Shown here: positions 4,255 to 17,076 of the stretch, piece by piece
Numbering within the stretch: the first letter of the stretch is position 1
Layout of the letters: every line of letters begins with the position of its first letter
Virus record (IMG/VR): IMGVR_UViG_2534681703_000014
Coordinates: 1-45,442 of that record
Direction: 5' to 3' (one strand)
DNA length: 45,442 bases
Source: a virus
Lineage: Duplodnaviria > Heunggongvirae > Uroviricota > Caudoviricetes
Notes under the pieces: generated by a model
The model's input: the letters and a program-made list of their open reading frames with translations, nothing else
What the model was told of the DNA's origin: nothing
The model's database searches: none
Made by a program: the position numbers and the translations under genes

Positions 4255-4458
4255 TTACGGCGCTGTTTTTAATCCTGCCGGGATTTCGTTATTATCCATG
4301 CGAATAACTTTCTCGACCAGATAACAGTTACCAGGAATTTTCTGTTCTGCTGCGGCAGCCATACATTCTTTCATTGAACCATATATACCAGTAACCACAT
4401 CAACAGGTTCGCCAGTATTAAGAAAAACAGTCAGAGTGAGGGCAACAGCAGTCTTCAT
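4255..4458 (-). CDS. Hypothetical small early protein (67 aa)
   Basis: ORF in the early-left operon; ATGA start/stop overlap with upstream ORF suggests translational coupling; no recognised domain. Confidence 0.4.
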   Translation of the reverse strand: MKTAVALTLTVFLNTGEPVDVVTGIYGSMKECMAAAAEQKIPGNCYLVEKVIRMDNNEIPAGLKTAP

Positions 4459-4748
4459 TGCCAGCGTCCTTTTTGCATCAGGCGTAAACGGGCCAGCATT
4501 GAAACAATGCATATTTTATTTAATAACTCCCGTTCGTGTTTTCTCTTGTTAATGGCATCTTCAGTAAATACAGGGTTACTGATAGTGACACCAATTTCAA
4601 AACAACCTTCAGACGTATTAACGTTTGGTAATAACGTTTCCATTATCGCGTCCTCAACAATGAATTTTGTGATGCGGTGCCTGGTGCCTCCAGGTGACGT
4701 TAACCAGTTAACAATTAACGCCGGATACAGAGAATCCACCCATAACAC
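4455..4748 (-). CDS. Hypothetical early protein
   Basis: ORF co-oriented with the early-left operon; start codon uncertain. Confidence 0.4.
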   Translation of the reverse strand: MLWVDSLYPALIVNWLTSPGGTRHRITKFIVEDAIMETLLPNVNTSEGCFEIGVTISNPVFTEDAINKRKHERELLNKICIVSMLARLRLMQKGRWQ

Positions 4749-5204
4749 TGTTTTTGGTTTTAACTGTTCCGCGTGCGCTTAGCCGCATTCACCGCATCAC
4801 AAAATTCACTTTAAAAAGGGCGGCAGAGCAGTCACGGAGTAAAACTGATACCGCTAAACGCCACCAGAAAATTGATAACAGAGGGCGTTGCAGCGGGGTT
4901 GTCACTTAAGCGTATGGTCAACCTGACAACCCGGTGTCCTCAACGGGGAAGGAATAACCCCGCCATACTTACCGCCGCGCCATTTCGCGGATTGCCACAA
5001 CCGGAAGCGCACGGTCGACGAAAATTTAACGACAGGCTATCTATGAACCAGCAACCTCGCCGTGCGCTTTCGCGTTATGCTCTGACTTTTCAGAGAAATA
5101 TCCTTTCAGTAAACTGTCAGTACCGGATGCTCACCCGTGTCCGGCGCACGCACTCCACCTCACCCGTGGAGAACTCCTTAAGTACCAACCCTCAGGATGG
5201 TGAA

Positions 5205-6190: not shown

Positions 6191-6427
6191 TCACTCACCT
6201 GAGTTTCTTTCCAGCCAGCGACGGGCACCATTTTCGGTTTTAAACGTTTTGCTTTTGGTATACGTCATCGCGGTGAACGTACCGTCCTGGTTGGGGAACA
6301 CGCCACATACCAGAGATTCGCTGTTGCCAAGATCGATAGTATCCATGCTGACCTCATTTCCCCTTAACGCCGGGGTAGCGGAACAAAAACCTGCTGCATA
6401 GTTATTAAAGTTGAACCCTGCCGTCAT
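6191..6427 (-). CDS. Hypothetical early protein (78 aa)
   Basis: First ORF downstream of the putative pL region at 6428-6637. Confidence 0.45.
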   Translation of the reverse strand: MTAGFNFNNYAAGFCSATPALRGNEVSMDTIDLGNSESLVCGVFPNQDGTFTAMTYTKSKTFKTENGARRWLERNSGE

Positions 6428-6637
6428 GTTCTTACGCCTCGGGCTGGCTACTTAACCCCTGACCACTGCCTGGTAACTCGAAGTATTGCCCTGCATTATG
6501 TGGGGCGGGGTGGGTTGATATTTTTAGTTTAATAAACATTAAACTTAAGTCAAGTAAAAACTAAACCGCAGGGCGTAACAAACACAACGCTTTTGATAAA
6601 GTCGTTGCGGTTGTTATGTTTCTATTGGTAGTGAAAG

Positions 6638-6916
6638 TTAGGGAAACTGGCGTCTTGCGTGGATCACGTTTACTACTTCAACGCTTGATGTTGTTACGCG
6701 GTATAGAATTATATAGTTAGGGTGGGCTACAATCTCACGCAAGCCAGGTACTCTGTCGCTTGGTGGGTATAAATACGGATGTTCGGATAACGGCAGCACA
6801 CAACCCCTTAATCGCTGCCATAAGCGTTCAGCCGCATCTATGTCGAAACGAGCAATATAACTAGTTATATCATCTAGGTCGGTATCTGCGCTTTCAAGCC
6901 ATAACACGGGTAACAT
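6638..6916 (-). CDS. Type II toxin, RelE/ParE superfamily (92 aa from internal ATG)
   Basis: Size, basic C-terminus (...NVIHARRQFP) and pairing with an upstream small RHH-like antitoxin ORF whose stop is 1 nt from this start; family call from remembered ParE-like sequences. Confidence 0.65.
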   Translation of the reverse strand: MLPVLWLESADTDLDDITSYIARFDIDAAERLWQRLRGCVLPLSEHPYLYPPSDRVPGLREIVAHPNYIILYRVTTSSVEVVNVIHARRQFP

Positions 6917-6917
6917 T

Positions 6918-7109
6918 TTACTGCTTGCTCCGTTCCTTGCGCATTTTAGCAAAGCGTTCTGCCATTCTGCGCTCAACTTCGTCATGGGGAATTGCTGGGC
7001 GTGGATCTGCAAGGCTCGTTGCTACTTTTGCACGCAGCCATTCGTTGTAACTGTTTTCTTGTTCAATGGTTTCAAATTCAGAAACCATTGGTGAAAGGGC
7101 TCTATTCAT
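6918..7109 (-). CDS. Type II antitoxin, ParD-like (63 aa)
   Basis: Small ORF MNRALSPMVSEFETIEQENSYNEWLRAKVATSLADPRPAIPHDEVERRMAERFAKMRKERSKQ with strong GGAGG SD; immediately precedes the ParE-like ORF. Confidence 0.6.
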   Translation of the reverse strand: MNRALSPMVSEFETIEQENSYNEWLRAKVATSLADPRPAIPHDEVERRMAERFAKMRKERSKQ

Positions 7110-7129
7110 GTTTCCTCCGGTTTTATAAC

Positions 7130-7501
7130 TCAGGCGCGGCGGCATTTTTGCGCCGCAATCCATCTCGCTATGAGATCTTCCATTGATTCTTTTTTCTGCT
7201 TTAACTCGCTGATTATCTGGCGTTGCTCATCCTCAGGGAAGGCTGAAAAAATCTGCAATAATTCCAGTTGATTAGACGTTAACCCTGCATGTGGTGGAGA
7301 AACCTCCGGTTGTTCTGCGTATTCCGCATCCAGATACCCTTCCGGCATCCCGTATGTTTGCTCTATTCTTCTGGCAGCCTTTTCTCCAAACGAGGCTCTC
7401 CCACTCATTAGTTGAGATAGGTAGCTCTTCTCTTTGGGTGGCAGAGTTTTATCTTTAAACCACTCCTTGAGACGTAAACGGCGAATTTCTTTTTTTTGCA
7501 T
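7130..7501 (-). CDS. Prophage repressor, short HTH (XRE-like) protein without a peptidase domain (123 aa)
   Basis: HTH-like segment SYLSQLMSGRASFGEKAARRIEQTYG; divergent from a Cro-like gene across a 98-bp operator region. Confidence 0.65.
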   Translation of the reverse strand: MQKKEIRRLRLKEWFKDKTLPPKEKSYLSQLMSGRASFGEKAARRIEQTYGMPEGYLDAEYAEQPEVSPPHAGLTSNQLELLQIFSAFPEDEQRQIISELKQKKESMEDLIARWIAAQKCRRA

Positions 7502-7599
7502 GTGGTAATTATCTTTAGTAATCACTAAACAAGCAAATACTTGACTTAATGGTTTATTAAACACTAAACTCTCAAAAAAAACACTAAACCGAGGAAGGT
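7502..7599. promoter_or_regulatory. Divergent promoter/operator region (OR-like) with three CACTAAAC repeats and a TTGACT -35-like hexamer
   Basis: CACTAAAC at 7523-7530, 7562-7569 and 7582-7589; TTGACT followed about 18 nt later by TAAACT upstream of the cro-like start. Confidence 0.55.
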
Positions 7600-7902
7600 A
7601 TGACATTAAAAGAGTTTATTAAATCATTGAGGGTTGGTGATGCTAAGAAATTCGCAGCCAGACTTGGTGTATCGCCATCTTACTTATCGCAAATGGCGTC
7701 TGGACGAGCAGCTATATCTCCAACACGCGCCCTTATGATCGAATCTGCGACGGAAGGCCAAGTAAGTAGGGCGGAGCTACGACCCCATGATTGGGAGCTT
7801 ATTTGGCCTGAGTATGCGAGCGGCATTCGTTTGGGGCAAACACATGTAGTTCATGCTGAAGGTGATTGTAGTGCATGCTTATCTGATGGAGTTGATTCAT
7901 GA
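7600..7902 (+). CDS. Cro/YdaS-like HTH regulator (100 aa)
   Basis: HTH-like segment KKFAARLGVSPSYLSQMASGRAAISP; first rightward gene after the operator, as in Rac-type immunity regions. Confidence 0.7.
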   Translation: MTLKEFIKSLRVGDAKKFAARLGVSPSYLSQMASGRAAISPTRALMIESATEGQVSRAELRPHDWELIWPEYASGIRLGQTHVVHAEGDCSACLSDGVDS

Positions 7903-8324
7903 AAATCAAGCATGAACACATCCGCATGGCGATGAATGCCTGGGCGCATCCGGACGGTGAAAAAGTTCCGGCTGCGAAAATTACCAAAGCGTATTTCGAG
8001 CTGGGAATGACGTTCCCGGAACTGTATAACGACAGCCATCCGGAAGCCCTGGCTCGCAATACTCAGAAAATTTTCCGCTGGGTAGAGAAAGACACCCCTG
8101 ATGCGGTTAAAAAAATTCAGGCGTTGTTACCAGCTATCGAAAAAGCAATGCCACCTCTGCTGGTGGCCCGAATGCGCAGCCACAGTTCAGCCTGGTTTCG
8201 GGAGCTGGTGGAGACGCGGGAACGGCTGGTGAGAGACGCTGATGATTTTGTCGCAGTGGCGATCGCTGGTTTCAACCAGATGAATCGTGGTGGCCCTGCG
8301 GGAAATATTGTGGCTGTGCATTGA
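7899..8324 (+). CDS. YdaT-like protein (CII-position gene of Rac-type immunity regions)
   Basis: N-terminus MKIKHEHI matches my recollection of Rac YdaT; follows the YdaS-like gene with a 4-nt overlap. Confidence 0.55.
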   Translation: MKIKHEHIRMAMNAWAHPDGEKVPAAKITKAYFELGMTFPELYNDSHPEALARNTQKIFRWVEKDTPDAVKKIQALLPAIEKAMPPLLVARMRSHSSAWFRELVETRERLVRDADDFVAVAIAGFNQMNRGGPAGNIVAVH

Positions 8325-8395
8325 CTCGCAATATTCATACCGGATCACTTCCGGCAATTTGTGAGTAAAAAGATTCGGTATCAAAAGAGGTGAGT

Positions 8396-9436
8396 ATGGC
8401 TAACGCCTGGCTCAGATTATGGCATGACATGCCAAACGATCCTAAGTGGCGAACAATTTCCAGGTTGTCAGGACAGCCAATCGCAACAGTGATGGCTGTG
8501 TATATCCACCTTCTGGTGAGTGCGTCACGAAATGTCACGACATGTCACGGTGTGTCACTACGTGGTCACATTGATGTCACGGCGGAAGATTTAGCAAGTG
8601 CGCTTGATGTGACGGAAGAAGTAATTGATTCAATTTTACAGGCAATGCAGGGACGGGTACTTGATGGAGATTTGATCAGTGGATGGGAAAAACGCCAGGT
8701 ACTGAAAGAGGACAATGGCAACGTTTCACAAACCGCGAAATCCCCGGCAGAGCGCAAGAGAGCGCAGCGCGAGAGGGAAAAATTACGAAAACAGAATGAG
8801 GGGGCGCGCGACGAGTCACGCATCTGTCACGACATGTCACGACGAGTCACGACAGATAAAGATACAGATAAAGAATTAAACCCCACACATAACGCGCGCG
8901 TGCGAGAGAGTGCTCCTGCCAGTGAGGCAAATGGCGTGCCGTTGCAAACAGCGGAACCTGATTACCTGGAAGGCCTGAGCGAACCCATCGGGAAATTTCC
9001 GATGACCGATGGCTGGCATCCGTCGCCGGATTTTCGACGACGGGCTGCGCTGTGGGGCGTGGCTCTTCCTGAGCCGGAATTTACACCAGCTGAACTTTCC
9101 GCCTTCCGGGACTACTGGGCAGCGGAGGGCAAAGTGTTCACGCAGGTTCAGTGGGAGCAGAAATTCGCCCGTCACGTAAATCACGTCAGGGCGCAGGCTA
9201 AACCAGTCAGCAAGGGGGTAAACCATGCAGCAGCACCAGGTGGCACCGCATCACGGGCAGTTCAGGAAATTCGGGCAGCACGTGAGCAGTGGGAACGTGA
9301 AAACGGATTTATCAGCGACGGAAACGGCCTGGAAGCTGTGGGAACTCATGGGGGAGGTTTATTCGAACCGCTGGACCCAGAAGAACGGGGCCGCACCTTC
9401 GAAGCTCTGGATTGCACAGATTGGCGCGATGACTGA
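8396..9436 (+). CDS. Replication initiation protein (YdaU/DUF1376-like N-terminus, DnaT-like C-terminal region); O analogue
   Basis: N-terminus MANAWLRLWHDMPNDPKWRTI; AGAGGTGA SD; internal iteron clusters as in lambda O/ori. Confidence 0.65.
   Translation: MANAWLRLWHDMPNDPKWRTISRLSGQPIATVMAVYIHLLVSASRNVTTCHGVSLRGHIDVTAEDLASALDVTEEVIDSILQAMQGRVLDGDLISGWEKRQVLKEDNGNVSQTAKSPAERKRAQREREKLRKQNEGARDESRICHDMSRRVTTDKDTDKELNPTHNARVRESAPASEANGVPLQTAEPDYLEGLSEPIGKFPMTDGWHPSPDFRRRAALWGVALPEPEFTPAELSAFRDYWAAEGKVFTQVQWEQKFARHVNHVRAQAKPVSKGVNHAAAPGGTASRAVQEIRAAREQWERENGFISDGNGLEAVGTHGGGLFEPLDPEERGRTFEALDCTDWRDD
8522..8853. repeat. Two clusters of (T)GTCACG iterons inside the O-like gene; candidate replication origin
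   Basis: GTCACG at 8524, 8535, 8544 and 8576 with GTCAC variants at 8554 and 8565; second cluster at 8815, 8826, 8836 and 8847; followed by an A/T-rich AGATAAAG-repeat stretch at 8852-8880. Confidence 0.55.
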
Positions 9437-9890
9437 GCAGCAAATCCGACAGGTCTGCCGCCAGTGCATGGACCGCTGCCGGGCGGGTGAAACATGGCCT
9501 CCGGACCTGGCTGAGTTTGTGGCACTGATTTCGGAGAGTGGGGCAAATCCATTTGGTCTGACGGTGGATGCTGTGATGGAGGAGTACCGTCGCTGGCGCA
9601 ATGAGTCCTGGCGATACGACGGAAGCGATAAATACCCATGGACTCAGCCTGTGCTGTATCACATTTGCCTCGAGATGCGTTCAAAGGGGATTGAGCGCCA
9701 GATGACCGAAGGGGAATTAAAACGGCTTGCAGAACGGCAGCTGACGAAATGGGCAAAGCATGTTAGTAACGGCCTGAGCGTTCCGCCAGTCCGGCGACAA
9801 CTGGCGGCACCCAAACGCCCGTCGGGACCAACGCCAATTGAGTTACTGAAACAGGAATATGAACGCCGGAAAGCGGCTGGGTTTGTTTGA
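9225..9890 (+). CDS. Replication protein P-like (helicase loader analogue)
   Basis: C-terminal half has lambda P-like pattern (...YPW...[10 protein letters not shown]...); GGGGG SD before ATG 9225; alternative ATG at 9429 overlaps the O stop. Confidence 0.55.
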
Positions 9891-12366: not shown

Positions 12367-12602
12367 TTTTATGGATCACCTTTCTGATTGATTTCATATT
12401 GGCGAGGTAGCAGGAGTTAAGTAGAATTGCTGCGGGTGCTTGAGGCTATCTGTCTCAGGCATGAACACCAAAAGGCAGATAGAGAAAAGCCCCAGTTAAC
12501 ATTACGCGTCCTGCAAGACGCTTAACATTAATCTGAGGCCATATCTATGCGACACATAGAGATTAGCCTCTTACGGACCGAAAGGTCAAGGAGAAGCAGG
12601 CT

Positions 12603-12758
12603 ATGAAGCAGCGAAAGGCGATGTTAATCGCCCTGATCGTCATCTGTTTAACCGTCATAGTGACGGCACTGGTAACGAGGAAAGACCTCTGCGAGGTACG
12701 AATCCGAACCGGCCAGACGGAGGTCGCTGTCTTCACAGCTTACGAACCTGAGGAGTAA
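12603..12758 (+). CDS. hok: Hok/Gef-family type I toxin (51 aa)
   Basis: Translation MKQRKAMLIALIVICLTVIVTALVTRKDLCEVRIRTGQTEVAVFTAYEPEE aligns by eye with Hok ([52 protein letters not shown]); not in the ORF track (under 60 aa). Confidence 0.7.
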   Translation: MKQRKAMLIALIVICLTVIVTALVTRKDLCEVRIRTGQTEVAVFTAYEPEE

Positions 12759-16766: not shown

Positions 16767-16842
16767 GGCCCTTTAGCTCAGTGGTGAGAGCGAGCGACTC
16801 ATAATCGCCAGGTCGCTGGTTCAAATCCAGCAAGGGCCACCA
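16767..16842 (+). tRNA. tRNA with CAU anticodon, resembling E. coli tRNA-Ile2 (ileX-like); Met cannot be excluded
   Basis: Manual cloverleaf: acceptor GGCCCTT/AAGGGCC, D-arm GCTC..GAGC, anticodon loop CTCATAA, T-arm GCTGG-TTCAAAT-CCAGC, 3' ACCA. Confidence 0.85.
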
Positions 16843-16843
16843 A

Positions 16844-16920
16844 CCGCCACTAGCTCATCAGGAAAGAGCGTCAACCCTTTAAGTTGAGTGTGCGAGGTTC
16901 GAGTCCCCGGTGGCGGTCCA
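16844..16920 (+). tRNA. Atypical tRNA-like gene, apparent anticodon UUU (Lys) with C33 and U73
   Basis: Acceptor CCGCCAC/GTGGCGG, D-arm GCTC..GAGC, anticodon stem TCAAC/GTTGA with loop CCTTTAA, T-loop TTCGAGT with one stem mismatch, 3' TCCA. Confidence 0.5.
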
Positions 16921-16922
16921 GT

Positions 16923-16998
<76 letters not shown>

Positions 16999-17001
16999 TA
17001 T

Positions 17002-17076
<75 letters not shown>

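Follow-up and report, generated by a model that had tools for sequence, protein, structure and literature searches.

The paaR2-paaA2-parE2 operon in the immunity region of an apparently complete lambdoid prophage

What is a toxin-antitoxin (TA) pair doing directly behind the repressor gene of a phage? The question is raised by three small genes in a 45,442-nt stretch of viral DNA (IMG/VR record IMGVR_UViG_2534681703_000014; the whole stretch is referred to here as the window). A first-pass annotation had described a repressor gene followed by a ParD/ParE-like pair, compared the arrangement with cI-rexAB of lambda, and proposed that the pair is expressed together with the repressor in the lysogen. 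The three open reading frames (ORFs) were found exactly where it had placed them: all are co-directional on the minus strand, with spacers of 20 nt and 1 nt (position 6917), and a GGAGG ribosome-binding site, read from the sequence, stands 4 nt 5' of the antitoxin ATG (Table 1). A regulator, an antitoxin, and a toxin in this arrangement make up a PaaR/PaaA/ParE three-component system. The best explanation of the locus is a CI-like immunity operon that carries a TA pair as cargo, with a likely role in addiction, and we put the probability of this reading at roughly 0.93.

Table 1. Genes, promoters, operators, and other features of the immunity region (window coordinates)
Feature	Position	Strand	Description
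paaR2	7130..7501	-	123 aa, CI-analogous HTH repressor; ATG 7501-7499, TGA stop 7132-7130
paaA2	6918..7109	-	63-aa antitoxin; ATG 7109-7107, TAA stop 6920-6918
parE2	6638..6916	-	92-aa ParE-family toxin; ATG 6916-6914, TAA stop 6640-6638
paaR2-paaA2 spacer	7110-7129		20 nt, minus-strand sequence GTTATAAAACCGGAGGAAAC; GGAGG at 7114-7118
OR region	7502..7599		98 bp; divergent promoters and operator repeats
PRM	7536-7508	-	TTGCTT 7536-7531, 17-nt spacer, GATAAT 7513-7508; read from sequence
PR	7541-7570	+	TTGACT 7541-7546, 18-nt spacer, TAAACT 7565-7570; promoter scan
OR repeats	7513-7530, 7552-7569; 7582-7589		two inverted repeats and a half-site; GTTTAGT-N4-ACTAAAC type
OL/PL	6526..6566	-	TTGACT-16-TAAACT (6553-6526), overlapped by repeats 6527-6544 and 6549-6566
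ydaS-like	7600..7902	+	Cro analogue, 100 aa; Pfam YdaS_toxin E=3.9e-12, and HTH_3
ydaT-like	7899..8324	+	CII analogue, 141 aa; Pfam YdaT_toxin E=1.4e-9
YdaT operator OM	7892..7909		TTGATTCATGAAAATCAA at the ydaS/ydaT junction; predicted from sequence
hairpin	6576..6616	-	imperfect, between the parE2 stop and OL; conserved in loci L001, L002, and L003

All three products were identified by comparison with profiles and solved structures (PDB identities at E=7e-60, 5.5e-37, and 1.3e-39 for the toxin, antitoxin, and repressor queries, respectively). The toxin matched Pfam ParE_toxin (PF05016) with E=1.9e-16 and 60.9 bits against a cut-off of 23, over profile positions 1-89 of 89, and agreed with ParE2 in the PDB (5CW7_B and 5CZE) at all 92 of its 92 residues (100% identity). 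Its fold is therefore that of the ParE/RelE family, as had been supposed; weaker PDB matches were returned for 3KXE, 6X0A, and 5CEG. The antitoxin was 100% identical to PaaA2 of PDB 3ZBE/5CW7 (residues 2-63 are those of 3ZBE_A), belonged to the Pfam family PF21217 PaaA2 (E=1e-19, 70.7 bits against a cut-off of 27), and matched NF050103 of NCBIfam ('RelB family antitoxin'). In the Pfam and NCBIfam profile searches at E<=0.01, the 63-aa antitoxin drew neither a ParD nor an RHH model. The profile search that had been suggested as a check on the pair thus bore out the toxin, with ParE_toxin above its cut-off, and spoke against the ParD/RHH antitoxin, for which PaaA2 is to be substituted.

Longer versions of the genes produced by mechanical ORF calling (158, 81, and 124 aa) were rejected, as it is with the shorter starts that the proteins line up with the PDB chains from residue 1 onwards. 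Because of this match, and because the PaaR2 N terminus, MQKKE, was established by protein sequencing (PMC8630535), the short versions are taken to be the real genes. In a comparison with locus L003, the CP-933P prophage of an O157:H7 genome, ParE2 and PaaA2 were identical and PaaR2 agreed at 121 of 123 residues, differing only at linker residues 66 and 67. On the identity of its proteins to solved structures and its agreement with CP-933P copies, the locus is the paaR2-paaA2-parE2 ('RAE2') operon known from E. coli lambdoid prophages. The finding as such is already known: the genes, the structures, the operon, the operators, and the analogy to cI-rexAB have all been published. A single operon, a toxic ParE2, and a lambda-like switch were shown by Hallez 2010 (as cited in PMC8630535), Jurenas 2021 (PMC8630535), and Prolic-Kalinsek 2023 (PMC9986795), and the same three papers draw the cI-rexAB analogy explicitly for this locus, in agreement with the first-pass annotation. 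What the window adds is only that the cassette occurs also in an apparently complete prophage.

The properties of the two TA proteins have been described. PaaA2 and ParE2 form a complex, PaaA2 is degraded by ClpAP and ClpXP and lacks any DNA-binding domain or motif, and ParE2 localises to the nucleoid and induces the SOS response (PMC8630535). For ParE2 toxicity and SOS induction, PaaA2 degradation by ClpAP/ClpXP, and the structure of the complex, that paper cites Hallez 2010 and Sterckx 2016. In the window, translational coupling of parE2 to paaA2 is likely, since the parE2 start lies 1 nt past the paaA2 stop. Recent insertion of the TA pair found no compositional support, the GC content of the TA genes (0.45-0.48) being no different from that of their neighbours.

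Next to the operon, divergent repressor and cro-like genes with repeated operators between them, and a second operator cluster with a leftward promoter beyond parE2, give the locus the layout of a lambdoid immunity region. Repeats of the GTTTAGT-N4-ACTAAAC type occurred six times in the window against 1.1 expected, and four of the six lay in OR or OL; an operator pattern with other spacing, TTTAGTRWWNNNCTAAA, gave zero matches, and the N4 form was used instead. In the promoter scan the PL hexamers were the same as the PR hexamers. By our own reading, the PRM hexamer GATAAT is followed by 6 nt and then by the A of the paaR2 ATG, and a transcript with its +1 there would be leaderless. OR differed from that of CP-933P by one substitution and by an additional A between repeats three and four (98 bp versus 97 bp), and OL/PL was near-identical to the CP-933P copy. 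DNase footprints of PaaR2 and YdaS cover the 97-bp intergenic region, with its four 18-bp inverted repeats and half-site consensus GTTTAGTAA (PMC8630535). Both proteins repress PRM and PR, low PaaR2 activates PRM, and either protein represses PL933P, a promoter beyond the operon with three operators and hexamers identical to those of PR, about 100-fold (PMC8630535). The immunity region is bistable, and the switch needs both PaaR2 and YdaS (PMC8630535).

The YdaS-like product differed from CP-933P YdaS at one residue, and the YdaT-like product matched the PHROG family 'CII-like transcriptional activator' at E=4e-45. A YdaT operator, TTGATT-N6-AATCAA, has been mapped and footprinted (Prolic-Kalinsek 2023, PMC9986795), and between ydaS and ydaT lies a PRE-like promoter that YdaT activates (PMC8630535). 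The operator pattern had a single zero-mismatch match in the window, which is the predicted OM of Table 1, and this site would be that of a PRE-like promoter giving an alternative leftward transcript of the operon. At the other end of the operon, the minus strand of 6500-6660 folded with z=-3.2, and 0 of 200 shuffles folded as well. The terminator scan called no intrinsic terminator after parE2, and the hairpin between parE2 and OL has no canonical U-tract; with low confidence, it may be a candidate end of the operon transcript, positioned like lambda t_imm.

The repressor, PaaR2, was identical in residues 1-66 to the PDB entries 7NKV/8C3K/8C3L, which bear the name 'Phage repressor protein CI', and its C-terminal part was weakly DicA-like (NCBIfam, E=9e-7). 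A Pfam search of PaaR2 gave zero matches, S24 peptidase included. PaaR2 thus works like CI and yet is not a member of the CI/LexA family, because the S24 peptidase domain is absent. In published work, PaaR2 is a CI analogue and the paaR2-paaA2-parE2 genes of the CP-933P copy form one operon driven by PRM933P; 5' RACE puts the +1 of the leaderless paaR2 mRNA at the ATG; and PaaR2 lacks a peptidase or RecA-dependent autocleavage motif, the prophage being unresponsive to mitomycin C (PMC8630535). Since PaaR2 is non-cleavable, induction would need an undiscovered antirepressor or a stationary-phase switch. The strict LexA box pattern CTGT-N8-ACAG had no match anywhere in the window, and so there is no evidence there for an SOS-controlled antirepressor.

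DicF sRNA lies at 4818-4869 on the minus strand (Rfam, 68.6 bits), and just downstream of it is an ORF at 4455-4748, also on the minus strand, whose C-terminal 62 residues (METLLPNVNTSEGCFEIG...) we take to resemble the cell-division inhibitor DicB. Because DicF and the DicB-like ORF belong to the leftward operon that would be controlled by PL/OL, silencing a division inhibitor is probably a further task of PaaR2, comparable to that of DicA in Qin.

How the operon would work in this prophage is read across from the CP-933P copy, for which the steps of the mechanism were shown and in which ParE2 and PaaA2 are identical and PaaR2 is near-identical. PRM would fire at the paaR2 ATG. PaaR2 would occupy both OR and OL, about 1 kb apart, shutting PR and PL, and would stimulate PRM at low level. 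Its repression of PR would silence ydaS and ydaT, and its repression of PL the leftward operon that includes DicF and the DicB-like gene. The paaR2 mRNA would carry paaA2, with its own strong ribosome-binding site, and parE2, both in the rexA-rexB position. PaaA2 would sequester ParE2 without binding DNA, and because PaaA2 cannot regulate transcription, transcription of the TA pair would be left wholly to the phage switch. If the cassette were lost, labile PaaA2 would decay and ParE2 would be freed, resulting in nucleoid damage and the SOS response.

The role of the pair is, in our estimation, likely to be addiction: cells losing or swapping the immunity cassette would be poisoned, and the prophage and its immunity region would be stabilised. 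The idea of 'immunity-cassette addiction' is that of Jurenas et al. The locus stabilises an unstable mini-F plasmid, and post-segregational killing is its only demonstrated phenotype (PMC8630535); addiction in a chromosomal prophage is extrapolated from these plasmid-stabilisation assays. Under steady conditions ParE2 activity was not detected in either transcriptional state, and the TA genes were transcribed in the PaaR2-on and YdaS-on states alike in the published reporter (PMC8630535). Co-expression of the pair with the repressor in the lysogen, as proposed in the first-pass annotation, therefore holds as far as the operon is concerned, which was shown for the CP-933P copy, but its transcription is not limited to the lysogen-like state.

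Addiction is not the only role that could be proposed for such cargo. In a Rex-like defence, the TA pair would mainly protect the lysogen from superinfecting phage by abortive infection, with stabilisation secondary, and ParE2 would be released upon host transcription shut-off or PaaA2 degradation during infection. The place of paaA2-parE2 between OR and OL, as for rexA-rexB, would suit this, labile PaaA2 would supply the trigger, and the cassette occurs both in the genome of phage Evi and here, in a prophage whose integrase and large terminase look intact. However, none of the three proteins matched a PADLOC-DB v2 defence model (E<=0.01), and post-segregational killing stands as the sole demonstrated phenotype; defence as the main role is thus unlikely. 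PaaA2-ParE2 may also serve active phages, either by punishing replacement of the immunity region through heteroimmune recombination or by Rex-like exclusion. The basis for such a role is that the cassette is found here in a prophage whose integrase, replication, and packaging genes look intact, which sets it apart from the defective CP-933P, and that unrelated backbones, three or more in number, carry it too, as does the deposited genome of a phage; we regard such a role as similarly improbable.

A different question is whether PaaR2 controls the prophage at all. It could be the detached DNA-binding half of a split antitoxin, autoregulating a stand-alone three-component TA system. This was the original description of 2010, as cited in PMC8630535, and the missing DNA-binding domain of PaaA2 is in keeping with it. 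PaaR2-type operators, however, occur outside the operon at PL and also cover PR, the promoter of the divergent cro/cII-like genes, and paaR2 stands in the place of cI or dicA, while PL has a DicF/DicB-type operon under it; moreover, PaaR2 represses PR and PL, and bistability requires PaaR2 together with YdaS (PMC8630535). The stand-alone reading, largely refuted by the footprints and reporter assays of PMC8630535, is very unlikely. That the genes are chance ORFs or decayed pseudogenes without function has next to no probability. Nothing speaks for it, the one relevant point being that CP-933P is itself a defective prophage. Against it, crystallised proteins agree with the toxin and the antitoxin at every residue (100% identity), the N-terminal domain of the repressor has an identical counterpart among solved structures, 576 genomes conserve the locus at >=99%, and the ribosome-binding site and the coupled stop and start are intact. 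The evidence is best accounted for by the CI-like immunity operon with its TA cargo.

Among known systems, the closest is RAE2 of CP-933P/Sp12 of O157:H7, where the system was first described. The window copy shares its gene order and spacing and has essentially identical OR, OL, PR, PL, ydaS, and YdaT operator, while the surrounding prophage mosaic is different, as are the C-terminal half of YdaT and the replication genes; the integrase is frameshifted in the O157:H7 copy examined and is a full-length ORF in the window. Lambda cI-rexA-rexB is like the window locus in being a leftward operon between OR and OL with the repressor first, a leaderless PRM transcript, two accessory genes co-transcribed in the lysogen, divergent cro/cII analogues, and a CII-type activated PRE. 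The two are unlike each other in sequence, which shows no similarity; in the repressor, as a RecA-cleavable peptidase domain is missing from PaaR2; and in the cargo, here a ParE-type TA pair instead of RexAB. Lambda also has three OR operators versus the four inverted repeats of the PaaR2-type OR, and its OR and OL are about 2.4 kb apart, a distance of about 1 kb in the window.

Canonical parDE systems (RK2 ParDE, Caulobacter ParDE1, and Vibrio ParDE2) have in common with this pair a ParE-family toxin and a small, upstream-encoded antitoxin that neutralises it. They differ in that PaaA2 has neither an RHH domain nor a ParD match, and in that a separate phage repressor replaces autoregulation by the TA complex. 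With DicA/DicC-dicB of Qin and RacR/YdaS/YdaT of Rac, both in K-12, the locus shares the repressor slot, the weakly DicA-like C terminus of PaaR2, divergent YdaS and YdaT family proteins, and DicF with a DicB-like gene in the leftward operon. To our knowledge, neither Qin nor Rac has a TA pair behind the repressor gene.

The distribution of the cassette was examined in 5426 complete E. coli genomes with a 962-bp query comprising paaR2, the OR region, and the TA pair. Matches were found in 633 of these genomes (about 11%), 576 of them at >=99%, and the best match was 99.5% identical. Counted separately, paaR2 with OR gave 593 genomes and the TA pair gave 633, and about 595 genomes covered at least 80% of the query. 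From the 593 genomes with paaR2 and the roughly 595 with at least 80% of the query, paaR2 is essentially never seen without the TA pair. In about 40 genomes, paaA2-parE2-like DNA (80-95% identity) was present and megablast gave no match to the paaR2 of the window; these TA copies may be the paaR1/CP-933M-type homologue of the literature or copies behind other repressors. The result is useful mainly for annotation, as public labels lag the literature for a cassette of this frequency.

A segment of about 2 kb (6357-8313) was common, at about 95%, to CP-933P (by ynfA), a RecET-type prophage (by yebY), and phage Evi, whose backbones are otherwise different. Among unrelated lambdoid backbones, the immunity cassette moves as a unit of about 2 kb that consists of OL, parE2, paaA2, paaR2, OR, ydaS, and the greater part of ydaT. 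The right-hand mosaic junction lies inside the C-terminal half of ydaT, which diverges from the CP-933P copy. Over the first 25 kb of the window, coverage of 80% or more was reached by none of the complete E. coli genomes (the best covered 65%), and the exact prophage of the window was found in no complete E. coli genome and in no deposited phage.

At the homologous loci (L001, L002, and L003), RefSeq lists PaaR2 as 'hypothetical protein' and YdaT as 'toxin YdaT family protein'. In PHROGs v4 the label for the families of ParE2 and PaaA2 is 'unknown function', and in phage Evi parE2 is unannotated despite an identical 92-aa ORF.

As a whole, the window looks like a full lambdoid prophage: genes for an integrase, a large terminase, and an exonuclease are present, and so are replication genes of the O-like and P-like kinds. 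Two plus-strand ORFs, one O-like (8390-9436) and one for a P-like helicase loader (9225-9890), overlap by 212 nt in different frames, and each matches the 482-aa phrog_15931, at profile positions 1-347 and 281-482, respectively. A frameshift within a fused replication gene could explain the overlap, as could a mis-called start. A sok antisense RNA was found at 12434-12605 on the plus strand (Rfam, 106.7 bits), aligning with the hokD and MokW regions of CP-933P and Evi; the sok locus is a predicted second TA system, of type I, in the same prophage. Four tRNA genes, for Met-CAT, Lys-TTT, Thr-TGT, and Gly-TCC, were located at 16767-17076 on the plus strand by ARAGORN and Rfam, whereas CP-933P carries Ile/Arg/Arg tRNAs after its Q gene.
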